64,000 bases of DNA from Myxococcales bacterium (GTDB lineage: Bacteria > Myxococcota_A > Polyangia > Polyangiales > Ga0077539), in assembly GCA_016793325.1 (NCBI GenBank), contig JAEUKI010000056.1, positions 4,221-68,220 of the forward strand, given 5' to 3'. The notes under the pieces were generated by a model, which did no database searches, was not told the DNA's origin, and saw nothing but the letters and a program-made list of their open reading frames with translations. The first letter of the stretch is position 1. Each line of letters opens with the position of its first letter. Shown piece by piece: positions 35,057 to 49,695 of the stretch. The position numbers and the translations under genes were made by a program.

Positions 35057-37057
35057 TCAGCTGACGGTCTTGACGCAGCGGAAGCCCACGTTTTCAAGAA
35101 GCAGTCGCTCGGCCGGCGAGCACGCGGCGCTCGCGCAACCAGCGTTGCGATACAGCAGACCCGCGGGCGCCGCGGTTCCTGCTGGGAGCGTCTCGCGCAA
35201 CGGCAGGCCACGGACCGTTCGATAGGGCTGCTGCCAGTTGGGCGTGCGCCCGTCGTCGTCGCGAAAGCTCGACGAGGTCCACTCTTGTCCGTTCGTCGCG
35301 AGCCCGGCGATCTCGTCTTGAACGGTGTCTGCCGCGAACGACCCCGCCGGCAACAGTCGCCCTGCGCCGCCCGCGAACGCAGGGAGCCCCGCGGGCGCTG
35401 GGCCATCCCACGGCTCGACGCGAGGTTGCCCGCGGCGACCCGCAAATTCCCACTGTTCTTCGGTGGGAAGCGAGCCCCCGATCGCCGCGCAATACGCCGT
35501 CGCGCTCGACCACGCGACGTTCACCGCGGGAAGCGCCGCGCGCGCCTCGGGCAGCGACGGAACCCACGGTGGGATCATCAGCCTGTGCTCGTGGTTCGAC
35601 TCGCTCCACGCCTCGTACTCGCCGAACGTGACCTCGCGCTTCATGATCCGAAACGCGGGACCCGAGAACTGCACGTGCGCGCTCGGAAGAAAGCCTCCGC
35701 GCGTGTCCGTCTCTGCCGCGCGACCGAGCGTCACGGGCGCAGCGGGCGCGGCGACGAGCGCCCAGCGCGTCGGGTCTTCGGGCGGCGGAGTCCACACCGC
35801 GCGCGGGCTCGAGGCGTCCGAGCCGGCAGCGACCACGGCGCCAGCGTCGGCCGCAGCGTCGAGCGCGGCGTTGCGGCGCTTCACCCAGAGGGCGCCGACG
35901 ACGGAGCCGCCGACGGCGACGACGAGAAACACGCCCACAAAAACAAGCCACGATCGCGATCCGCCCTCTTGATCGTGGTCGTGATCATCGTCGGATTCTT
36001 CGGGCGCGTCGGACCTGCGCGCCGTCGATTTGCGAAGCTCCTCGACGGGCGTCTCGACCGTCTCGGTGTCGTTCGCCTCCGAGCCGCTTGATTGTTTGTG
36101 TCCCCACGGCCCCGCGAGGTCGGGCACGGCGACGATGGGCCTCGAGACGCCCGTCGTTCGACGCGGTCGAATGTGCTCTTCGAGCGCTTGTTCGACCGCC
36201 TCGAGCAACGCGGCGACGGTGTCGTACCGTTGGTCGCGGTGCATCGCGAAGGCCTTCTCGAACACGGGGTCGAGCGACGGCCCGAGGTCGGCGCGGAGCG
36301 CAGCGAGCTTGGGGCGCGTCGGGTCCAAGATCTTTCCGATGACCTCTTGATAGGTCGAGCCGTCGAACGCCGCGCGCTGCGCGAGCATCTCGAAGAGCAC
36401 CGCGGCCATCGCGAAGATGTCCGTGCGTCGGTCGATGCTGCGGACGTCGCCGAGCACCTGCTCGGGGGACATGTACTGAATCGAGCCGATGATCTTTCCG
36501 ACCTCGGTGCGGCCGAGCGAGTGCGAGCTGTCCTTGCCCAAGATCCTGGCGACGCCGAAGTCGAGGACCTTGACCATCACGGCGGGCGATCCGATGCCCT
36601 GCACCATGATGTTCTCGGGCTTCAAATCGCGGTGGACGATGTTCTTCTGGTGCGCCGCGAGCACGCCCGCGCACGCCTGACGAAACACCGAGAGCGCTTC
36701 GTCCGCGGACAGAAGCCTTCGCTCCTCGGAAGCACGATCGAGGACCTTGCGCAGCGGCTCGCCCTCGACGAACTCGCTGACGAGGTACGGAACGCCGTGG
36801 TCCTCGCCGAATTCTAGGAGCGCCACGACGTTGGGGTGCGAGAGAGCGGCAGTGGCCTGGCCTTCTTGCCAGAAGCGACGCACGACCTCTTCGTTCGCGA
36901 GGTGCTGCTGGAGGAGAAATTTGACGGCGACGTGCCGCCCGAACGCCTTCGCGTCGGACGCGATCCACACCTCGCCGAACGCTCCCTCGCCGAGCTGCCG
37001 CTCGAGCGTGTAGCGCGTGGCGATGACGGCGCCTGTCTTTCGGTCAGCGTCAGCCAT
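35057..37057 (-). CDS. Ser/Thr protein kinase fused via a TM helix to a C-terminal FGE-sulfatase (formylglycine-generating-enzyme-like) domain
   Basis: Start MADADRK (M81 of ORF). Kinase motifs GEGAFGEV, VAVK, HRDLKPEN, DFG. TM WLVFVGVFLVVAVGGSVVGALWV. C-terminal FGE-like motifs (REVTFGEYEAWS, NVAWSSATAYCAAIGGSLPTEEQWEFAGRRG, GFRCV). Confidence 0.85.
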   Translation of the reverse strand: MADADRKTGAVIATRYTLERQLGEGAFGEVWIASDAKAFGRHVAVKFLLQQHLANEEVVRRFWQEGQATAALSHPNVVALLEFGEDHGVPYLVSEFVEGEPLRKVLDRASEERRLLSADEALSVFRQACAGVLAAHQKNIVHRDLKPENIMVQGIGSPAVMVKVLDFGVARILGKDSSHSLGRTEVGKIIGSIQYMSPEQVLGDVRSIDRRTDIFAMAAVLFEMLAQRAAFDGSTYQEVIGKILDPTRPKLAALRADLGPSLDPVFEKAFAMHRDQRYDTVAALLEAVEQALEEHIRPRRTTGVSRPIVAVPDLAGPWGHKQSSGSEANDTETVETPVEELRKSTARRSDAPEESDDDHDHDQEGGSRSWLVFVGVFLVVAVGGSVVGALWVKRRNAALDAAADAGAVVAAGSDASSPRAVWTPPPEDPTRWALVAAPAAPVTLGRAAETDTRGGFLPSAHVQFSGPAFRIMKREVTFGEYEAWSESNHEHRLMIPPWVPSLPEARAALPAVNVAWSSATAYCAAIGGSLPTEEQWEFAGRRGQPRVEPWDGPAPAGLPAFAGGAGRLLPAGSFAADTVQDEIAGLATNGQEWTSSSFRDDDGRTPNWQQPYRTVRGLPLRETLPAGTAAPAGLLYRNAGCASAACSPAERLLLENVGFRCVKTVS

Positions 37058-38895
37058 CACTCGATGAATACACGCACACGAATATCGTTGCTCGCCCCGT
37101 CGCGCCACGCGACGGCGAAGCGCCCGGTTCCGCCGAAGGCCGCCGACGGCGTCTCGCGGTTGCCGCCCGCGGGCCCGCCCTCGTCCGCGCTCGCGTTGAG
37201 CTCGAAGTCCGCGGTGCTCGCGTTGAAGCGATTGACGGCCTGAGAGCCATCGACGCGCGCGAGTCGACCGCGGATCGTTCCGCCGGCGTTTTGCCAAGCG
37301 ACGAGGACGGTGCCGCCGGGGCTCATCGCGACGGTCGGCGCGGACTGGTCACCCTCGACCGTGGTTGGAGCGAGTCGATCGGCGCCCATCGGCGCGAGCG
37401 CTCCCGAAAACGCGCGCCAGCGCACGGCGGAGCCGCTGTTGTCCATCGGGTCCGACATGCTCGTGTCGCGCCACGCGACGGCGACGTTGGTTCCGTTGGT
37501 CGCGATCGCGACTTGATCTTGATCACCTGTGGTCTGTGTCGACGCGACGGCAGGTGCGCCCATGAGCGTTCCTGCGCTCGAGATCTTCGCGACGTACACG
37601 TCCTTCGCGCCGACGCCGCCGCTCACCCACGCGGCGGCGAAAGAACCGTCGCTCAGGCCCACGACGACGGGCGAAGACGCGGTCGTCGATCCCGGCATTC
37701 CCGCTGGGACGAGCGGCGCGTCGGCCATCGGCGCCGCGGGCATCGCCGCGAGCGTCGTGCTCGACGTTCGAAGCACACCCGCAGTCGCGTCCTCCCACAC
37801 GAACAAGACGCGCGTGCCGCCGATGGCGACCGATGGATTGATCATCCCGAGCATTCCGCTGCCGGCGGTAGTCGCATTGACCAGCATCTGTTGCGGCGTC
37901 GGCGCGTCGAAGCCCGTCTGCGCGAAGCCGTTGATGTCGAAAACCGTGTTGGTGCGCTCGACCGTCTGCCACACCGCCGCGAATCCCGCGGCCGAAGCAG
38001 CGACGCGAACGGTCTTCTGCTCCCCGCGAGCCATCGAGTCGAGCGGGAGGTCCCTCGCTAGAATAGCGGGGCTTGTAATCAAGCGCCCGTTGGGGTCGAG
38101 CATGCGCACTTGCGGGTCGTCTGTCGCTCCTGCGGGGCTGAACCCGATGACCATGTTCTGCGACGCGGCCCACGCGACGCTCGGCTGGTCCTTGCGGCCC
38201 ATGATGGAGGTCGCGACGCTGAGCTCGGGGATGCGGCAGCGCGCGTTGCAGTACTCGTTGGGCATGCCCTCGTCGCAGATTTCGTTGCTCGAGATCATCG
38301 TGTCGCCGCAGCGGCCGATGTCCGCGACCTCTTGCATCTCGACCGGAACGCTGACGGTCTGACCCGCGTTGGCCATGATCGTCGCGCAGCCCGAGCCGAG
38401 CAGGCGGCGCACGGTGCTGCCGCCGGGCCCCGGTGCGCTGCCCGAGCCTTCGATGAGCACGATGTACGTCTTGCCACCGGGGACGCGCTGCATCTGCATC
38501 GTCCCAGTTTTGGGAAAGCACGTGTCGACGGGGGTCGCTTCACCGTTCTCCATGCGGAGCTGCGCCCAACGCGTGGTGTCGCATCGCTCGTGCGGCGGAA
38601 CGCTTCGTCCCGCGACCGTCGCGTACGGATCGGTCCCCGTCAGTCGCCCCGTCATGGTGTCGCACGCGATGTCACCCGTGCGCTCGAACACGCGGAGGTG
38701 AAGCTGCTCGTCCAAGCGATCGAGCGTGATCTGCGGAACACGCACGCGCATCGCGAGCGGCGCAGGCGCGTCCGTTGCGGCAGGGGCACATCCCGCGGCG
38801 AGCGCGCTGGCGCTGGCGAGCAACGACAAGAGCGAGCGCGTTGACGCGGCGCGATGCGCCCCCGCGATCCGCGCCTCGGGGCGCGAGCGTTCCAT
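37057..38895 (-). CDS. Hypothetical secreted lipoprotein (613 aa), translationally coupled (TGATG overlap) to the STK-FGE gene
   Basis: Lipobox LLSLLASASALAAGC. Beta-rich repetitive body (A/G/T-rich with VAWRD/VAWQN repeats). Confidence 0.6.
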   Translation of the reverse strand: MERSRPEARIAGAHRAASTRSLLSLLASASALAAGCAPAATDAPAPLAMRVRVPQITLDRLDEQLHLRVFERTGDIACDTMTGRLTGTDPYATVAGRSVPPHERCDTTRWAQLRMENGEATPVDTCFPKTGTMQMQRVPGGKTYIVLIEGSGSAPGPGGSTVRRLLGSGCATIMANAGQTVSVPVEMQEVADIGRCGDTMISSNEICDEGMPNEYCNARCRIPELSVATSIMGRKDQPSVAWAASQNMVIGFSPAGATDDPQVRMLDPNGRLITSPAILARDLPLDSMARGEQKTVRVAASAAGFAAVWQTVERTNTVFDINGFAQTGFDAPTPQQMLVNATTAGSGMLGMINPSVAIGGTRVLFVWEDATAGVLRTSSTTLAAMPAAPMADAPLVPAGMPGSTTASSPVVVGLSDGSFAAAWVSGGVGAKDVYVAKISSAGTLMGAPAVASTQTTGDQDQVAIATNGTNVAVAWRDTSMSDPMDNSGSAVRWRAFSGALAPMGADRLAPTTVEGDQSAPTVAMSPGGTVLVAWQNAGGTIRGRLARVDGSQAVNRFNASTADFELNASADEGGPAGGNRETPSAAFGGTGRFAVAWRDGASNDIRVRVFIE

Positions 38896-40450: not shown

Positions 40451-41164
40451 ATGACCACGCAACGAACCTTCGCGGCCCGATGGCTCGGTCGCGTCCCGTA
40501 CGAGCGCGCGACGGCGCTGCAGCTCGAGCACTTCGAGCGCCGAAAGCGCGGCGAAGGCACGGACACGCTCCTCTTGCTCGAGCACGACCCGGTCCTCACG
40601 CTCGGTCGCAGCGCAGACGGGTCGAACGTCGTGATCAGCGACGAAGAGCGCCTCGCGCGCGGCGTAGACCTCGTCTCGACGACGCGCGGCGGGGACGTGA
40701 CCTACCACGGCCCGGGGCAGCTCGTGGCGTATCCGATCTTCGATCTACGGCCGGATCGATGCGACGTTCGAAAATATGTGCGCGACCTCGTCGAGGTGAT
40801 GTCTCGGCTGTGCGCGGACTTCGGCGTCGGCGCAGGGCCGCACTCGAACATGATCGGCGCGTGGGTCGACCTCGACGCGCCCCGCGACAAGTGGCCCGGC
40901 GACGCGGCCGCGAAGCACCCTGCGAAGATCGGCGCGATCGGCGTGAAGATCTCGCGCTGGATCACGATGCACGGCTTCGCGCTCAACGTCCGGACGAAGC
41001 TCGATGACTTCGCCATGATCGTCCCGTGCGGAATCGCCGAGCACCCAGTGTGCTCGCTCGAGTCCATCGGCGTGAGTGACGCGCCGGGACTCGCCTGGTT
41101 CGCTCGGCGCGCGGTGGGACACTTCGAAGACGTCTTCTCGGCGCGCTGCGTCGATGGTCCATGA
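40451..41164 (+). CDS. lipB: Lipoyl(octanoyl) transferase
   Basis: Start MTTQRTF. LipB motifs (RWLGRVPYERA, HDPVLTLGR, GGDVTYHGPGQLVAYPI, KIGAIGVKISRWITMHGFALNV with catalytic Cys region PCGI). Confidence 0.85.
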   Translation: MTTQRTFAARWLGRVPYERATALQLEHFERRKRGEGTDTLLLLEHDPVLTLGRSADGSNVVISDEERLARGVDLVSTTRGGDVTYHGPGQLVAYPIFDLRPDRCDVRKYVRDLVEVMSRLCADFGVGAGPHSNMIGAWVDLDAPRDKWPGDAAAKHPAKIGAIGVKISRWITMHGFALNVRTKLDDFAMIVPCGIAEHPVCSLESIGVSDAPGLAWFARRAVGHFEDVFSARCVDGP

Positions 41165-42660
41165 CCGCGATCGATCGCGACGATCCTCGGGACGATCTCG
41201 ACGCGCTCGAACGACGCGCGCTCGACGACCGCGACGCGCTCGAAGCGCTGCTCGTTCGGTGCGCCGCGATCGCCCGTGAATCGCACCTGTTTTCGCCGGA
41301 CCCCGACGCCTTCGCGCGGTGCGGTCGCGCGATCGAGCTCTTCGACCTCGCCTCGCTCGACGGCGCCCCGCTCGGTGAGCGCTCGCGCGAAGCGGTCGCG
41401 CAACTCTCGAGCGCACTCGGTCGTCGCGCCCTCGCTGATGGTGCCCCCGAGCTCGCGGTGACGCAGCTCGAACGCGCTCGGAGCGCAGCGCTGCGAGCGC
41501 CGAGCGAACGCGCGGTCGTGCTCCACGATCTCGCGCAGTGCTACGAAGTCCTCAGCGACGCGGCGACCGCGGAGGCTCGTTGGCGCGAGTGCCTCGATGC
41601 GTGCGCCGAGAGCGCGCCGTCGGTCGAGCGCGATTTCTACGAGCGGACGTCCGCCGAGCGGCTCGCGTCGAGCGCTCGATCGCGAAACGATCGCCTCGAG
41701 GCGCAGCGATTCGAGCGCATCGCGGACGCGTGCGACGACCGCGAGATCGAGCGCGAGGTCGCGCAAAACGCGGAAGCCGAGCGTTTTTTCAGCGCGGCGT
41801 GGGACGGGACAACGCCGCCACAGATCGCCCACGAGGCGCGGTGGATCGAGCGCTCGCAGGGCGTGGTTCACGCGACACGACCAAGCGAAGTCACGCGCGC
41901 CGAGGACCTCGTCGCGACCGTCGAGTGTCCGATCATCTTCGGTCCCGCGCGAGACGATCGCTGCCTATGCGGCGCGGTCGAGGGACGATCGCAGCGCGGC
42001 GTTGTGTGCGATCGGTGCGGCGTCGAAGTGCAGCGCGCGGCGCGGAGGCGAGCGCGGTTCGGGCACATCGAGCTCGCCGAGCGGCGCTTCCACCCGTGCG
42101 CGCTCGTCGACGGCGCGTTCGGCTCGCTCGTGTCGCTCGCGCTCGACCTCGACCCTGCGCGGCTGGCGTTGGTGCGCTCGCGCGCTCGGTGCATTCGCTA
42201 CCTCGCGCGCTCGCCGCGCGGGGTCGACACGTTGGCGCCGGACTCCGAAGAGCTCGCGGCGTTCGACGCGGGCCGAGGAGACCCAGCGTTCAACGTCGCG
42301 ACCGGCGACGAGGCGATCATGGACGCGCTCGCGTCGCTCGATGCCCGGGGCGCGCGTGACGAGGTGCAGCTCGAGCTTCGCGCGCTTCGCGCACACAAGA
42401 CCGCCCATCGAGCGGACGTTCGTTCGCGCGTCGATTGGCTCGCGGCGCGGGGCGAAGCGCTCGCGCTGCTCGAAGCGGGCGCGTCGCTGTTGATCGAGCG
42501 CGTTCCCGTGCTGTCGCAGCCGCGGCTCGCCGAGATGGGGCGCAGCGACGCGGTGACGCCATTGTACGAGGCGCTGCTCGGGGCCCAGAGCGGCCACGAA
42601 ATCGACGTCGCGCTCGCGGCGCTGGTGCGTGCGTTTGCAGCGACGCCAACACACGCGTGA
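41161..42660 (+). CDS. Hypothetical protein containing an RNA-polymerase beta-prime N-terminal zinc-ribbon (ZBD)-like segment; start overlaps lipB stop (ATGA)
   Basis: Residues ~250-310: AEDLVATVECPIIFGPARDDRCLCGAVEGRSQRGVVCDRCGVEVQRAARRRARFGHIELA. E. coli RpoC 58-105: [57 protein letters not shown]. Identical CxC-12-CxxC spacing. The rest of the protein is helical with no RNAP similarity. Confidence 0.65.
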   Translation: MTAIDRDDPRDDLDALERRALDDRDALEALLVRCAAIARESHLFSPDPDAFARCGRAIELFDLASLDGAPLGERSREAVAQLSSALGRRALADGAPELAVTQLERARSAALRAPSERAVVLHDLAQCYEVLSDAATAEARWRECLDACAESAPSVERDFYERTSAERLASSARSRNDRLEAQRFERIADACDDREIEREVAQNAEAERFFSAAWDGTTPPQIAHEARWIERSQGVVHATRPSEVTRAEDLVATVECPIIFGPARDDRCLCGAVEGRSQRGVVCDRCGVEVQRAARRRARFGHIELAERRFHPCALVDGAFGSLVSLALDLDPARLALVRSRARCIRYLARSPRGVDTLAPDSEELAAFDAGRGDPAFNVATGDEAIMDALASLDARGARDEVQLELRALRAHKTAHRADVRSRVDWLAARGEALALLEAGASLLIERVPVLSQPRLAEMGRSDAVTPLYEALLGAQSGHEIDVALAALVRAFAATPTHA

Positions 42661-43711
42661 CGGTGGGTGTCGCCGCACCGTTGTAGTGAAGGTCCATCGC
42701 GGCCCAGCCGTTAGCGCGGTCGGGTACGGCGATGTCGTCCGCGCCGTTCGATGGACATTGGCTGGCGTCGGCGTGAAGTCGTGACCTTGCGCGACGCGAC
42801 GCGATGACTAGTCTCCGAACCCATCGGTTCTGGTCACTCATCGAGGCGGTATCGCCGACGACGGAGCAGCCAAGAAGAGGCGCGGATCGGTGATCGAAGC
42901 CACCGATTCACGCGTCCCCGAAGCACGACAACCGCCGTCGACCACGGCCACTTTGAAGAGAGCGACCATGATCAATCGAAGCACCCTGGGTCGGACGAGC
43001 GCTGCTCGCCGACCCTCGGCGGAACACATTCGCGCTCCGCCCCGTTGAAGCAAACGCTAACTCGACGCTTCGGCGACGAGTCGTTCGTCACTGAATCGAA
43101 CCAACGACGACAGAGTTGCCCGCGACGAGCGGGCGCAGAAGGATTCGAGAGTACGGAGTCTGCACGAGCTACATGGGCCACACGATCGCTGCCGAGACGA
43201 CAGAGGGACTTCGCGCCCGACGTCGCGCGACGCAGAGAGCGTAAATGGTCAAAGGAGCAGTGGTTCATCTGGCGCAGAGCCAGCCACGCTCCGTCGGGCC
43301 GCGCGAGTTCGGCGACGTCTCCGGTGGGAGCAGTCGCGCGCGGGATTCGATGCCCTCCTTCAACCACCTTTTGGGCATCTTTGAATCACAAAAGCCCTAC
43401 CCCGACGCGCCGAACAATCGATGGACCTCCAACGCGCTCATTCTTCTGAACACACAACACGAAGATCGAACTCGCGCACGGCGCCCGCCAACTCCGACAT
43501 ATGGCTCTGATCGGAGAGCGGCGCCCGCGAGGGACGACTTCGACACGACGCGCAAGCGACTCGAGACACGACGACCGAGCCTCCCCCGCTCGGACGGCGG
43601 TTCGACGCGCTTCATCCCGTCGTCTGCCCTCCGAAACCGCGCGGATGTGCGTCCCCCACGGCGCGCGGCGTCGCGCAGGACCCACGAAGGCTGCGGTATA
43701 CAGACACGCCC

Positions 43712-46700
43712 GTGCAACGCTCGACTCTCGCTCCTGTGCTCAATGACGTCGGCCTCTGGCGTGCGCTCACAGAGCGCGATCGCGTGGAGTGCACGGACGA
43801 GCAGATCGCTGCGGCGTTCGACGCTGTCGCATCGCGGTCGGTGCGGCGACGCATCGCGCTGCTCGGGCTCGCTGCGACGGCGGCGATGACCCACCCGAGC
43901 GCGCTCGTTCGCGCCTCTGCCCATCGCGCGCTCATCGGCGCTCGTGGAACGCGCGCGCACGCCGCCATCGCCCGAGGCCTCGACGACGACGACGGCGCCG
44001 TCCGCCGCGCCGCGGTCGAATCGCTGCGCGCGCTCGCGAGCGCCGAACCCGAGCGGTGGATCCACGCCGTCGTGCACAGCCGAGCGGACGTTCGTGAGAT
44101 CGCCGTCGAGCTCGGGCCACCGCCGCGCGCCGAGGTGTTCGAACTCCCGTTGCTCGCGGACGAGGCGGCGCGCCCGAAGGTCCTGCCGCGCATCGAGCGC
44201 TGGGCCAAGGCGTCGACGTCGGTTCCCGCGTTCGCGGTCCCCGCGTTGCTCGACTCGACCGTGCGCGGATGGCTGCCGTTGTCGACGGCGCGAGCGATCA
44301 TCGACCGCGTTCCGACGGATCGATTGGGCCAGTGGCTGTTCGACCAAGCCGGACGAGGGCACCTCACCGATCCCGCCGAAGTCGCAGCGACCAACGCCGA
44401 CTCGACAGACCCGCTCGACGCGCTGCTCGAGCTCGAGTGGTCCCGTGAAGCGCCCACGAAGATTCCGTCCGACGCCCTGTGGTGGAAGTTGATCGGCCCC
44501 GTCGCCGATCAGTTCGACCAACTTCGACTGCGCTTCGCCGCGTCTGCGTGGGCGCTCGCGAAGCGCAAGGGCTACTGGTCCGCCTCGGGCCTCGCGGCGT
44601 GCGTGCTCTTTGCGCCGCAGTCGCTGCGCGGCGTCGAGATCCCTCCCGATTTCGTCGAGACCATCGTCGCCGCGAGCGTTCACGCGCAGCAGGCCTCGAT
44701 TCTGCTCGCGACGCGGCCTTCGATCGAGCGCATCGACGCGATTCGCGCCAAGCGCTCGACGCTCGATCGAGACGAAGTGCTCGCGGTCGCGATCGCGGCG
44801 ACGATGCAGCCGGGCTCTCGCTTCGAGGTGGCCTTGCACGCGCTCGGTCGAGATCGCCTCGTCGACGCGGTCGTTGCGTTTCCACGAGCGGCTGCGCTGC
44901 TGTTCGTCGATCCGGCGAGCTCGCTGGGAGCGTGCATCGATGTGCTCGATCTCGCGCGAGCGCGCTCGCCCGAGGCGGTCACCGAGCTCGCAGACCGCCT
45001 GTTGACCCTCGGCGGCGTCGAGCCCTTCTCAGTCTTCGACCTCGTCGGTCCGAGCGCTTCGCACGCGGCGCTGAAAGCCCACTGCGAGCGGCTCGCGCCG
45101 ACCCATCGGTCCATCGACCCACGAATTCAACTATGCCGTTCGATCGCAGGCGAAGCGCTCCCGACGCTGCTCGACGCGATCTTGTCTCGGCCCGACGTCG
45201 ACCCGCTGTTGCTTCGCTGGCTGCTCGCGGCGCTCGAGACCGAGCCGTGCGACGCGCTCGCGGCGTACATCACGCGCCGCGCCGCGCCCAACACACGCGC
45301 GATGCGCGCGCTCCTCGCGGCGATCGAGTCCTCGCATGCGCCCGCGGTCGCGCTCGCGCGCGTCGCGCAGAGCGCGGTCGAAGAGCGCGTCGCCCGAGCC
45401 GATCCAGCCCGAGAGCGCGCCGACGAGGCGATCGAACCGCCCGCAGCGACGGTCCCGGCTGTTGTCTCGGCGCCCGATGTCGCGCCGCCGGACGGGCAAG
45501 CGCTCGACGACTTGACCTACGTCTCGGATGAAGAGCTCGAAGATTTGGTCAAGCCATTCTTGCGCTGGCCGGTCACGGGCGTCGCCGCTGCGCTCGAGCT
45601 CCGAGAGTCACCTTCGCCCAACCCGTGGCTGTGCGCTGCGCTTCTGCGCGCGCACGACGCCGCTGAGCACGTCGCTCGCGTGCTCGCGACGTTTTGGCCG
45701 ACGGACCCCGAGACGCTCGCGACGCTCGACGAGCTCGTGGCCTCCAAGCTCGGGGCCTTCGATGACCTCGGGATGCTCGCGTCCGCGTGGCTCTTTCGCT
45801 GGGAGAAACACGCGCGGCGCTTCGTCGAGCTCGCCACGCAGTCCGGGTCGCTCGCGCAGGTGCTCGCCACGGTCGATCGATGGCCCGAGCCCCTCGCGGC
45901 TCGCGCGTGGAGCGCCGCCGCGCGCGTGCTCGAGACCACGGCGGCCCGCGGCGGGTCCGACGCCGTGAGCCCCGAGCTGTGGACGCCGATCGCGCGACTT
46001 GCGATCGACGAGATGTCCGGAGACGACGTTCCGCTCGTGCGAGACGAAGCGGCGCGATTTCTCGCGGCCGCGTCTCGAGCGCCGGCGTCGCGCGCGATCA
46101 TCGAGCCGCTCCGCGCCGACGCCACCGCGCTCCGTCCGTCGCTGAGCGCAGAGCGATCCGCGCTGCTCGGCGCCTGGCTCGATCGCGTCGCGACCGAGCG
46201 CCGTCCGCTCGCGACCGAGATCCTCGCGCGTCGACAACAACTCGAGAAGCTCCGACACGGACCGAAAGAAGCTGCGGCCGAGCTCGTCGCCGAGCTCGCG
46301 ACGTCCGCCGACGGTCGAGCGCTGATCTTGTACGCGCTCGAGCAAGAGCCGCGACCGCGCGCGTTCGACGAGCTCAACGCGGAGGTCGCGCGATGGCGGG
46401 GCGCGCTCGCGGCGAAGGTCGACGAGGTCCTCGCCACGAGGCCCGTGGCGCTCGCGGTCGACGTCGAGCTCGCCCGCGCGAAAGCGGGAGATCCCGACGC
46501 GTGGGCGCGCGCCGCGAAGCGCCTCTTCGAGTGCGACGAGCTCGTCGACGCGCGAACGATTCACGCGGTAGCGAGCGACGAAGCGCAGCGCAGCGAGCTC
46601 GCGTTCGCGTGGCTCGACGCGCGCTCTGCGTCCGTGCGGCACTGGGCGATCGAGCAGGCGCTCGTGTACGGGGACGTCGCGGGCAGCGCGCTCTCGACGC

Positions 46701-48793
46701 CCGAGCGCGCGCCGCTCGTGATCGCGAAGGTCGAGGCGCTCTTGTTCGATCTCGGGCCGAGCAAGGACGAGCTGCGACGGCGCGCCGCGCGCTGGCTGTG
46801 GCTGCGAGGGATCACGACGGGCTTCGTCCTGCTCGCGCAACACCAGATCAACGCGCCTCCCGGCGCGCCCGACTGGATCGCGACGGCGACGGACACGCAG
46901 CTCGAATCGCTCGTCGACGCGGCGATGACCGCGGGAAACTCCGTGCTGCCAGAGACGTGGATCGTCGATCTCTTGCGCGCTCCATCGATCGGGTTGCTCG
47001 TCGCGGTCGACGCCTGGTCAGCGCTGTTGCAGTGGGCGAGCACCGCGCCTTCGCGGCAGGCGGCGATCAACGAGCTCAATCGCGTGCGTCTCTTTCGCGG
47101 AGCGCGCGCGGCGAAGCTCCGCGCGGTCGCGCGGGTGTTCGCGTGGGGCGTCGAGGTGGGCCTGGTGCTCACGGGCCGCGCGATGAGCGTGCAGCTCGCG
47201 CGCGATCAAGCGCTCGGGTATACGCGGCTCGACGAGGACCGAGTGTTCGTGAGCGCGCTGCCGCTGTTGCGCGGCGAGCGCTTCGGCCGCGCCGTGGTCG
47301 AAGGGCTCTTGCTCCACGAGTTTGGACACCATCGATATCACCGCGGCGACGAGCAGCGCGCCGCGTGGGATCAGGGCTTTCGCGAGGGAATCGGCCCGTT
47401 GCTCAACCTCGTCGCCGACGAGCACCTCGAGCGCAACTTGCGCGCGCTCGACACCGAGTACGGCGATCGACTGAAGCGGCTCGACTCCTATGCGTTTCAG
47501 CACATGAGTCGGCCGCTCGCCGTGGCGACGCTGTTCGAGGTGTTGCGAGGCGATTTGCTGTCAGTGCTCACGTCGACCGAGCTCCTCTTCGCGCAGGATC
47601 CCGCGAGCGTGGTGCTCGAGCACGGGCGACTCTTGCAAGCGCTCGAGCGCTCGGGATCGAGCTTCGCTCGGTGGGTGCGCGCGCTGCGGATGGGGCTCGG
47701 CGACCGGCACGGCGACGAGAAGGTGTCTCGCGCGCTGGCGCTGTTTTCGGGGACGAAGTTTCGCAAGAGCACCATGGGCGAGTTGCTCGAGATCGCGCGA
47801 AAGGTCCGGGCGATCTTCGGCGACGAGTGCCGCCTTCTCAACGTCGTCGCGTCGCACGAGGACGTCGGTCACGGCGAAGAGGGCGAGCTCGATCGCTTGG
47901 GCGAAGGGATCTCGGACGAAGAGATTCGCCGTGAAGTCGACCGCATCACCAACCCGCGCAAGAGCGACGACGACGGGCTGAGCACCATGCGGCCCGGCGG
48001 AAAGCGCTGGCTCAACGTCACCGAGGGAACGGACTTCGACCTGATCACCCAGGTCGTTCGCGTGAAGTACGAGCCGTCCAAGCACCGCGCGCTCTCCGAG
48101 CGCGTTCGACGCTCCGCAGGGACGCTTCGCTCGTACCTCGAGCGGCTGGGGCTGCACCTTCAGCCGCAGCGATTGCGACTGCGCGGCCGACGCGTGGACG
48201 CGCCGCGGACGCGCGCGCTCGTCACGCGGGGAGACCCTCGCGTGCTCATCGCGCGCGAGATCCAGATCAAGACGGACCTCTTCATCGGCGTGGTGATCGA
48301 CTGCTCGGGCTCGATGGCTGGCGGCGAGAACATGCCGCGCGCCAGGCTCTTCGGCGCGCTGATCGCCGAGGCTGCGCGCGCGATGCCCGGCGTCGACGTT
48401 CGGATCTTCGGCTTCACCGATCGCGTGATCTACGACGCAGGAGACTCGACGCACCCCGCGGTGCACGCGCTCGAAGCGGGCGGAGGCAACAACGACTCGG
48501 GCGCGCTCTGGCACGCGGCGAACGTCGCGCGTGCGTCGAATCGGCGAGCAAAATTGCTGGTGATGATCTCCGATGGGCTCCCCACCGAGTGCTCCGCAGC
48601 GTCGCTCAAGCACCTCGCCGTCGAGCTCACGCGCCGACACAAGATGTGCTGCGCGCAGATCGCAGTGCAGCCCCTGCCCGAGGTGCTCTTTCCGAACTAT
48701 GTCGAGTGCGACGGGCCGGACACGGACGTGGTGGTCAAGCGCTTCGGGCGCATCATCGAGGGGCTGGTGAAGCGGGCGATGGGCGTTCCATAG
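43712..48793 (+). CDS. Giant (1693 aa) HEAT/PBS-lyase-repeat protein with C-terminal zincin-like HExxH module and von Willebrand factor A (vWA, MIDAS-complete) domain
   Basis: GTG start. N-terminal HEAT-like repeats (DDDGAVRRAAVESLRALAS; SRADVREIAVELG). Helical solenoid body. HEFGHH motif at ~aa 1200 with downstream ADEHLE. C-terminal vWA with DCSGSMAG...ISDGLPTE (DxSxS..T..D MIDAS). Confidence 0.75.
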   Translation: MQRSTLAPVLNDVGLWRALTERDRVECTDEQIAAAFDAVASRSVRRRIALLGLAATAAMTHPSALVRASAHRALIGARGTRAHAAIARGLDDDDGAVRRAAVESLRALASAEPERWIHAVVHSRADVREIAVELGPPPRAEVFELPLLADEAARPKVLPRIERWAKASTSVPAFAVPALLDSTVRGWLPLSTARAIIDRVPTDRLGQWLFDQAGRGHLTDPAEVAATNADSTDPLDALLELEWSREAPTKIPSDALWWKLIGPVADQFDQLRLRFAASAWALAKRKGYWSASGLAACVLFAPQSLRGVEIPPDFVETIVAASVHAQQASILLATRPSIERIDAIRAKRSTLDRDEVLAVAIAATMQPGSRFEVALHALGRDRLVDAVVAFPRAAALLFVDPASSLGACIDVLDLARARSPEAVTELADRLLTLGGVEPFSVFDLVGPSASHAALKAHCERLAPTHRSIDPRIQLCRSIAGEALPTLLDAILSRPDVDPLLLRWLLAALETEPCDALAAYITRRAAPNTRAMRALLAAIESSHAPAVALARVAQSAVEERVARADPARERADEAIEPPAATVPAVVSAPDVAPPDGQALDDLTYVSDEELEDLVKPFLRWPVTGVAAALELRESPSPNPWLCAALLRAHDAAEHVARVLATFWPTDPETLATLDELVASKLGAFDDLGMLASAWLFRWEKHARRFVELATQSGSLAQVLATVDRWPEPLAARAWSAAARVLETTAARGGSDAVSPELWTPIARLAIDEMSGDDVPLVRDEAARFLAAASRAPASRAIIEPLRADATALRPSLSAERSALLGAWLDRVATERRPLATEILARRQQLEKLRHGPKEAAAELVAELATSADGRALILYALEQEPRPRAFDELNAEVARWRGALAAKVDEVLATRPVALAVDVELARAKAGDPDAWARAAKRLFECDELVDARTIHAVASDEAQRSELAFAWLDARSASVRHWAIEQALVYGDVAGSALSTPERAPLVIAKVEALLFDLGPSKDELRRRAARWLWLRGITTGFVLLAQHQINAPPGAPDWIATATDTQLESLVDAAMTAGNSVLPETWIVDLLRAPSIGLLVAVDAWSALLQWASTAPSRQAAINELNRVRLFRGARAAKLRAVARVFAWGVEVGLVLTGRAMSVQLARDQALGYTRLDEDRVFVSALPLLRGERFGRAVVEGLLLHEFGHHRYHRGDEQRAAWDQGFREGIGPLLNLVADEHLERNLRALDTEYGDRLKRLDSYAFQHMSRPLAVATLFEVLRGDLLSVLTSTELLFAQDPASVVLEHGRLLQALERSGSSFARWVRALRMGLGDRHGDEKVSRALALFSGTKFRKSTMGELLEIARKVRAIFGDECRLLNVVASHEDVGHGEEGELDRLGEGISDEEIRREVDRITNPRKSDDDGLSTMRPGGKRWLNVTEGTDFDLITQVVRVKYEPSKHRALSERVRRSAGTLRSYLERLGLHLQPQRLRLRGRRVDAPRTRALVTRGDPRVLIAREIQIKTDLFIGVVIDCSGSMAGGENMPRARLFGALIAEAARAMPGVDVRIFGFTDRVIYDAGDSTHPAVHALEAGGGNNDSGALWHAANVARASNRRAKLLVMISDGLPTECSAASLKHLAVELTRRHKMCCAQIAVQPLPEVLFPNYVECDGPDTDVVVKRFGRIIEGLVKRAMGVP

Positions 48794-48996
48794 GGGGAGG
48801 AAGCCCCATCGTGGCCGGGCGCGGACGAGGCGCGGGTTGACCGCGAAAACAGTCCGAGATACACACCCGCCCCCTCCCACGGCCGCGAAGCAGAGCGAAC
48901 GGAGAGGTCCCTGCCGAACGACAAACCGCGATGCGCGCGGAATCGGCACACGAAATCAAGGGACCCGCTGCGCGAACGGATGGGGGAGAGGTCCAC

Positions 48997-49695
48997 ATGC
49001 AGACCACGATCAAGATCGAAGGCCAGAAGCGTCCCTCCAGCGGAAAGAGCCCCGCGCGCCGCCTGCGCGCCGCCGGAAAGCTCCCCGCGGTCGTCTACGG
49101 ACCGGGCAAGACCGCCGCGTCGGTGGCGATCAACCCGAAGGACGTCAAGACGGTCCTGTCGCAGCCGCTCGGCCGCAACACGGTGTTCACGCTGTCGATC
49201 GACGGCGCCGAGCAGCTCGCGATGGTCAAGAGCTTCGACTACCACCCGGTCTCGCGCGAGCTCCTCAGCGCGGATCTCTACACGGTCAGCCTCGACCGCG
49301 CGGTGGAGATCGAAGTTCCGCTCGTGCTCACGGGCAAGAGCAAGGGCGTCGCGCTCGGCGGCATTCTTCAGCAGATCTTCCGCAAGCTTCCGGTGCGCTG
49401 CACGCCCGACAAGATCCCCGCGAAGCTCGAGCTCGACATCACCAACGTCGAAGTGAACCAGTCGGTTGCGACCAAGGCGCTCCCGCTTCCCGAGGGCGTG
49501 AAGGTCATGCTCGACGCCAACCAGACGATCGTCTCCGTCGTGACGCCCGAGAAGGAGAAGGCGGACGCCGCCGCTGCTCCCGCCGCTGGCGCCGCCGCCG
49601 CTGCTGCTCCCGCTGGCAAGGACGCCAAGGCCGCTGCTCCCGCCAAGGACGCCAAGGCCGCTGCTCCCGCCGCCGCTGCGGCCAAGAAGAAGTGA
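48997..49695 (+). CDS. rplY: 50S ribosomal protein L25 / general stress protein Ctc, with Ala/Lys-rich C-terminal tail
   Basis: Start MQTTIKIEG. L25/Ctc family pattern (RRLRAAGKLPAVVYG, beta-barrel domain). Adjacent to pth as in many bacteria. Confidence 0.9.
   Translation: MQTTIKIEGQKRPSSGKSPARRLRAAGKLPAVVYGPGKTAASVAINPKDVKTVLSQPLGRNTVFTLSIDGAEQLAMVKSFDYHPVSRELLSADLYTVSLDRAVEIEVPLVLTGKSKGVALGGILQQIFRKLPVRCTPDKIPAKLELDITNVEVNQSVATKALPLPEGVKVMLDANQTIVSVVTPEKEKADAAAAPAAGAAAAAAPAGKDAKAAAPAKDAKAAAPAAAAAKKK

Follow-up and report, generated by a model that had tools for sequence, protein, structure and literature searches.

We found that a giant gene in a 64,000-nucleotide stretch of a Myxococcales bacterium genome (assembly GCA_016793325.1, contig JAEUKI010000056.1; the whole stretch is hereafter called the window) is one member of a large, unnamed family in bacteria with a fixed architecture and is not a lone oddity. 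Its open reading frame (ORF) occupies positions 43712–48793 of the + strand and encodes a protein which ends in a vWA (von Willebrand factor A) domain with a MIDAS motif (metal ion-dependent adhesion site). We consider it likely that this protein is the vWA/MIDAS adaptor subunit of a two-component MoxR-class AAA+ remodelling machine (AAA_5; CbbQ/NorQ/CobS/midasin-like), the partner ATPase of which is most likely unlinked from it.

A word-indexed search for relatives of the giant returned only four. An exhaustive profile search with its C-terminal 563 aa as query returned 1682 cluster representatives, 421 of these at E < 1e−30; nearly all relatives are 1600–1800 aa long and match at their own C-terminus. 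Scanning one genome per species, relatives were found in at least 215 species genomes, the best 80 of which belong to the Myxococcota (including Polyangiaceae, Sandaracinaceae, Nannocystaceae, Kofleriaceae and Minicystis rosea) and the Planctomycetota (including Pirellulaceae, Gemmatales and Phycisphaeraceae). We found no Pfam or NCBIfam model that spans the whole protein, and no published description of the family.

In the first two distant orthologues inspected, the next gene encodes an AAA+ protein of ~370 aa. By tblastn this ATPase lies directly downstream of the adaptor on the same strand at 65 of 82 loci; 12 loci have ≥ 1.7 kb of downstream sequence and no ATPase and the remaining 5 are cut and uninformative, giving 65 of 77 informative loci (84%). 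The two alignments are separated by a median gap of ~45 bp (< 300 bp in 59 of 66 cases). The ATPase is 65–77% identical across the two phyla and far more conserved than the adaptor. It matches the Pfam models AAA_5, AAA and AAA_3, scores far under the cut-offs of the GvpN and MadB models and, as a profile against the PDB, matches the AAA modules of midasin as well as CbbQ, NorQ and CobS at ~28–30 bits per domain. A specifically midasin-like identity was rejected, as the E value of 1e−20 for midasin is the sum of six modules and the best single module reaches 27.8 bits, which equals the scores of CbbQ, NorQ and CobS. The “NorQ” labels which JGI annotation gives to the family ATPase are name transfers only. 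No third gene was conserved around the adaptor–ATPase pair, the top clusters being antisense artefacts inside the giant gene, and we therefore regard the family as a MoxR-class AAA+/vWA system of two genes, one of which encodes a giant adaptor. A first-pass annotation of the window, made by eye from the sequence, had anticipated a link to MoxR-type AAA+ ATPases, which the AAA_5/MoxR-class partner bears out; it had also presented the giant as a “single-gene” protein, a description which cannot stand for a family with a dedicated, very conserved ATPase gene downstream at most informative loci.

The features of the giant gene are as follows:

43736–48793, + strand: giant adaptor gene, 1685 aa (from the ORF list, the GC content of third codon positions (GC3) and a start set by comparison with homologues P0001 and P0002; the open frame itself begins at GTG 43712)
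43859–44137, + strand: three PBS-lyase-type HEAT-like repeats, ~aa 42–134 of the 1685-aa protein (Pfam HEAT_2/HEAT and alphaRep profile match)
44138–47068, + strand: middle region of ~975 aa, Ala/Leu/Arg-rich and fast-evolving (from composition; presumed helical scaffold)
47069–47863, + strand: zincin-fold HExxH module of ~265 aa, minigluzincin/M48/ImmA-IrrE-like (HEFGH at 47315–47329, DEHLE at 47417–47431)
47864–48253, + strand: linker, comprising a low-confidence acidic loop and then a basic segment, RLxGRRxD...RGDPRxLIAR, before the vWA core (from model confidence, invariant columns and the CobT alignment)
48254–48790, + strand: C-terminal vWA/MIDAS domain (DCSGS at 48299–48313, with GGNND and SDG motifs downstream)

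The ORF listed in the first-pass annotation is present: it begins with GTG, translates to 1693 aa and has the codon-position GC of a real gene (GC3 0.85, in a window of 68% GC overall). Because the closest homologues (P0001 and P0002) begin MLNDVGLW, translation probably starts at the GTG at 43736 and yields 1685 aa. The modules of the protein become clear only once profiles and relatives are added. Searched alone, the window protein gave only sub-threshold Pfam matches (HEAT_2 at aa 57–112 and VWA_2 at aa 1527–1622) and one insignificant match in NCBIfam, and a PDB search with the single C-terminal sequence gave no match.

With family information, PBS-lyase-type HEAT repeats at the N-terminus, as first proposed, were supported by HEAT_2 matches in 12 of 19 family members (best E = 3.7e−10) and by a match of the family profile (positions 42–134) to the alphaRep proteins, which are designed from PBS-HEAT repeats (E = 2.3e−27). 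For the middle region, which the first-pass annotation had read as ~1000 aa of helical solenoid, profile–profile comparison with the HEAT unit in hhalign gave weak matches only (E = 0.002–0.07); the composition of this region is helix-favouring and rich in Ala, Leu and Arg. No transmembrane segments were found in the giant, and the adaptor is predicted to be cytoplasmic.

The zincin-like module with its HEFGH and ADEHLE motifs also held up. The HEFGH (aa 1202–1206 of the 1693-aa ORF) corresponds to an HExGH which is retained in 147 of 149 representatives, and the DEHLE (aa 1236–1240) lies exactly 34 residues past the first His in 139 of the 149. Its fold is zincin-like, with the HExxH on an active-site helix following a small β-sheet and the third ligand on the helix after that. 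This is the fold of peptidases, and zinc binding and catalysis are putative; the strict conservation of the HExxH together with the downstream Glu/His helix suggests that the adaptor may be a metallopeptidase. There was no sequence-level family match to the module in Pfam or NCBIfam, and at ~265 aa it is larger than minigluzincins, M48 peptidases and ImmA/IrrE proteins and differs from them in being embedded in a giant protein beside a vWA domain.

Between this module and the vWA core, the predicted local distance difference test score falls below 50 in stretches of model residues 264–397, including 264–278 and 296–319. The basic segment which follows has invariant columns (R370, G373, D377, P390, R391 and R396) and can be aligned, together with the vWA domain, to CobT (PDB profile E = 3.4e−7). 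The vWA domain itself stands at the extreme C-terminus, and in structure it is matched best by the MIDAS domains with which MDN1/Rea1 and NorD dock on AAA rings. It had been described as MIDAS-complete: the domain is there, but four of the five canonical positions are kept and, by motif pattern, the Thr position is taken by an invariant Asn (GGNND), as in CobT. Membership of the DUF2201, CoxE or CobT families, to which the giant had been likened, fails on those families' own models. Pfam CobT_C, which covers the vWA part of CobT, matches 5 of 19 family members; VWA_CoxE matches 6 of 19 (best E = 4.4e−9) but not the window protein; the CobT equivalog TIGR01651 in NCBIfam reaches 16.1 bits vs a cut-off of 759, PF06213 does not match, and neither PF13203 nor PF09967 matches at E ≤ 1.

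The absence of an AAA+ gene beside the giant was correctly reported for the window, but it is probably a matter of local gene order and not a property of the system. Searching the 64 kb by tblastn with the family partner ATPase gave nothing better than E = 4.6, the only ORF with a Walker A motif encodes an ABC-type ATPase (~56.1 kb), and no P-loop domain was found in the adaptor. The window shares its gene order (LipB-like gene, 499-aa β′-fragment protein, giant, L25, Pth, histidine kinase) with the P0002 contig and with loci L003, L004 and L005, although the histidine kinase was not detected in L005. The ATPase is not nearby in any of these, which are all the members of the syntenic clade with a downstream flank (L006 ends at a contig edge and is uninformative). 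They form one clade on a long branch in a neighbour-joining tree of the C-terminal modules. The other loci lacking an adjacent ATPase are scattered over this tree, which indicates several independent unlinkings. As the family is normally ATPase-linked and this small syntenic clade is not, we attribute the absence to a local gene-order effect.

One such unlinking could be followed in a Byssovorax metagenome-assembled genome (MAG; GCA_046351295.1). Its adaptor (L021, contig JAXLYT010000073) has no ATPase within 6 kb, and its ATPase orthologue (P0215) lies on a separate contig, JAXLYT010000020, between unrelated genes. The closest relative of this ATPase, P0232, is likewise unlinked, on a 270-kb contig. 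Since the tree places L021 with Minicystis, we rejected one shared unlinking in a common ancestor of Byssovorax and the clade of the window. Four other ATPases (P0209, P0196, P0232 and P0334) were considered as the partner in the window lineage and set aside because they belong to other organisms; no family adaptor is encoded on the 8.4-kb contig of P0209, where just ~840 bp lies upstream.

Within the syntenic clade, the ratio of non-synonymous to synonymous substitutions (dN/dS) was 0.08–0.26 for the zincin and vWA modules, indicating strong purifying selection, vs 0.43–0.69 for the middle region (Nei–Gojobori method, NG86; dS is probably compressed through GC3 bias). The fast evolution of the middle region could mean that a scaffold is under relaxed constraint or that a binding surface is under diversifying selection. 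The residues of the basic segment are also invariant in this clade. Purifying selection and the invariant segment together argue that the adaptor is still functional and, by inference, that the motor is still present. The best reading is therefore that the missing ATPase reflects the gene order of this lineage and does not mark a stand-alone system; for this genome we infer that the ATPase is most likely separated from the adaptor and encoded elsewhere. Two observations weigh against this. No ATPase orthologue was found for the genome of the window or for any genome of the syntenic clade among the ~190 listed of 1108 ATPase matches, and nine candidate clusters led elsewhere. The long branch of the clade, moreover, could be due to constraints which changed once the partner was lost.

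We made several further observations on the ATPase. Its N-terminal extension of ~95 aa is strongly conserved (…ETTFWxNPVExSxFRFRATHLDGxRAPKVVL…; L001:15046–15330 and orthologues) and has no Pfam match; it is a candidate adaptor- or client-binding domain. In a Gemmatales MAG (JBBRPS01) there are two paralogous giants, one with an adjacent ATPase (L024) and one without (L016), which suggests that one motor can serve two adaptors. At a further locus (L084:2277–7673; GCA_035910455.1, contig JAMHXN010000737), a 1798-aa ORF comes after an orthologous family ATPase which shares 87% identity with the Byssovorax one. This ORF was rejected as a family adaptor, since neither Pfam nor a tblastn comparison with the giant gave a match; it is a candidate for an alternative giant partner of the ATPase.

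By analogy with NorQ–NorD, CbbQ–CbbO, CobS–CobT and Rea1/midasin, a hexamer of the ATPase would dock on the vWA domain of the adaptor via the C-terminus and/or the conserved basic segment before that domain. The scaffold formed by the HEAT and variable regions would hold a client protein, the MIDAS metal would clamp an acidic residue of this client, and ATP hydrolysis would pull or twist the adaptor so that the client is remodelled. If the zincin module is active, the adaptor would then cleave the engaged client or itself, making this an ATP-gated processing machine. NorQD, which drives metal insertion, is the mechanistic precedent (PMC13036017), coupling of MoxR ATPases to vWA proteins has been described (PMC7159879, PMC3495828), and the zincin step echoes MoxR–vWA–peptidase degradation systems proposed earlier (PMC3495828).

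The main alternative to proteolytic processing is a chelatase-like role in metal insertion, in which the pair opens a client metalloenzyme and delivers a metal to it, and the HExxH and DEHLE motifs form a metal-holding site and not a protease. In sequence, the vWA domain is closest to CobT (by the PDB profile and the CobT_C matches given above), with which both the Thr-to-Asn MIDAS variant and the RLRG...D...PR segment are shared, NorD is among the top structural matches, and a role of NorQD in driving metal insertion is now established (PMC13036017). However, no CobN/ChlH-like or other metalloenzyme gene is conserved beside the pair, the fold of the HExxH module is that of peptidases and not of known metallochaperones, the giant fails the CobT model of NCBIfam (16 bits vs 759), and the scaffold of ~1100 aa formed by the HEAT and variable regions has no counterpart in chelatases. 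On balance we judge this role unlikely. Rather improbable, in our view, is that the adaptor was orphaned by loss of the ATPase in this clade, and now has a reduced ATP-independent role (as a MIDAS-dependent scaffold or a constitutive protease) or has been captured by a different MoxR ATPase. Every member of the syntenic clade with a downstream flank lacks a nearby ATPase, the clade has a long stem branch, and no orthologue from its genomes was among the ATPase matches listed. Orphaning sits poorly, however, with zincin, basic-segment and vWA motifs which are intact and under strong purifying selection, and with the Byssovorax MAG, an independently unlinked genome which keeps its ATPase; the matches inspected were also only a small part of the 1108.

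A sensing or defence scaffold had been put forward in the first-pass annotation. As a stand-alone, anti-phage system, the giant would act without an ATPase as sensor or effector in biological conflict, with the middle region as its recognition surface. This fits the lack of an ATPase in the window and the fast-evolving middle region, and among multicellular bacteria, MoxR–vWA systems which have HEAT/TPR scaffolds and, now and then, a metallopeptidase effector have been described as conflict systems (PMC7159879). We nevertheless think it very unlikely. PADLOC-DB v2 gave 0 families at E ≤ 1, the gene lies in conserved synteny between a lipoyl ligase and ribosomal L25/Pth, which are housekeeping genes, and there is no conserved third component. 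The domain order is also opposite to that of the ternary systems, with the vWA domain C-terminal (PMC7159879). The conservation of the ATPase across phyla is that of a slow motor and unlike that of diversifying defence genes, the ATPase-linked operon prevails at informative loci, and the tree of the C-terminal modules has no obvious sign of mobility (a tendency read from locus labels). We also considered the pair as a “split midasin”, in which a single-module AAA_5 ATPase works with a giant scaffold whose last domain is a midasin-like MIDAS domain. It would be a bacterial mechanoenzyme near, in architecture and evolution, to the prokaryotic ancestor of the eukaryotic protein and retained in Myxococcota and Planctomycetota, and would carry its own zincin protease and pull proteins out of a large assembly or process them; we find this reading quite improbable.

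In its proposed working mode, the adaptor–ATPase machine resembles NorQ–NorD, CbbQ–CbbO and CobS–CobT, and its layout resembles that of midasin, but the giant is a member of none of these. NorQ–NorD and CbbQ–CbbO are CGN-subfamily MoxR AAA+ proteins with a vWA adaptor. The adaptor described here is ~1700 aa vs ~600–770 aa for NorD and CbbO, and includes a zincin-fold module as well as HEAT repeats; its gene precedes that of the ATPase, which has the extra conserved N-terminal domain of ~95 aa, and there is no nitric-oxide reductase or Rubisco context. CobT is nearest to the vWA domain and basic segment, CobS is matched by the ATPase profile and the Asn-for-Thr MIDAS is common to both, whereas the giant lacks the N-terminal domain of CobT, has no CobN nearby and is unrelated in size and N-terminal architecture. 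Midasin (Rea1/MDN1) fuses six tandem AAA modules with a linker and a MIDAS domain, while here the motor is a separate single-module protein of ~370 aa, a zincin module is present, the hosts are bacteria and no clients with ubiquitin-like domains are known. The MoxR–vWA ternary conflict systems described by Kaur et al. 2020 (PMC7159879) likewise combine a MoxR-class ATPase with a vWA protein bearing HEAT/TPR-type scaffolds, are enriched in multicellular or complex bacteria and occasionally have a metallopeptidase fused. They differ in having a third component (VMAP, FtsH or β-propeller) and an N-terminal vWA domain with an effector at the C-terminus; our family has no effector or death-like domains and its flanks are housekeeping genes which vary between lineages.

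Upstream of the giant are a Ser/Thr kinase with an FGE-sulfatase domain (35057–37297, − strand), followed by a 614-aa protein and a 3D-domain protein and then, nearer the giant, by a GNAT acetyltransferase, the LipB-like lipoyl ligase and the 499-aa protein. Downstream are ribosomal protein L25/Ctc, peptidyl-tRNA hydrolase (Pth) and a large GAF histidine kinase. The neighbourhood had been described as dense in Ser/Thr kinases, and we did find three Hanks-type catalytic loops (HRDLKPxNI then DFG) in the 64 kb, at ~18723 (+), ~25344 (−) and ~36634 (−), the nearest to the giant being the kinase with the C-terminal FGE-sulfatase domain. However, this density is not special to the gene, as these kinases are not conserved beside the giant across loci and three of them in 64 kb is ordinary for Polyangia.

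The ORF for the 499-aa protein (41161–42660, + strand) starts in overlap with the stop of the LipB-like gene. It has no Pfam match, but its residues 255–413 are homologous to the N-terminal zinc-binding/clamp region of RNA polymerase β′ (~aa 47–202; best PDB E = 2.9e−15). The protein is conserved only in the syntenic clade, at 37–56% identity; a free-standing β′ N-terminal fragment protein is unusual. In the 1,075-nt intergenic region upstream of the giant we also found the following feature:

43299–43385, strand not assigned (.): conserved non-coding two-hairpin element

This block of ~87 nt has 81–95% nucleotide identity in three diverged syntenic MAG loci, and the surrounding intergenic DNA is not conserved. 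RNAalifold predicted two hairpins, the second followed by TTTG, with 2 compensatory pairs. The element has no match in Rfam; the only Rfam match in 42500–49100, to HgcE, was rejected as spurious (25 bits vs a gathering score of 50, antisense inside the ORF). It may be a leader, an attenuator, a regulatory element or a small RNA, and its link to the giant is putative.

For annotation, these results indicate that a vWA protein lacking a neighbouring partner gene should not be called stand-alone until the rest of its family has been checked. MoxR-class AAA+/vWA pairs occur widely, yet few have known clients (NorQD, CbbQO, CobST, RavA–ViaA and midasin). The family described here adds a well-defined, strongly conserved pair, present in at least 215 species genomes from two phyla known for complex cell biology, and its cultured hosts include Minicystis rosea DSM 24000 and Sandaracinus amylolyticus. 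Its midasin-like MIDAS domain makes it useful as an outgroup for the origin of midasin, and its unusually large adaptor with a protease-like module makes it a tractable system in which to study the coupling of motor force to processing.

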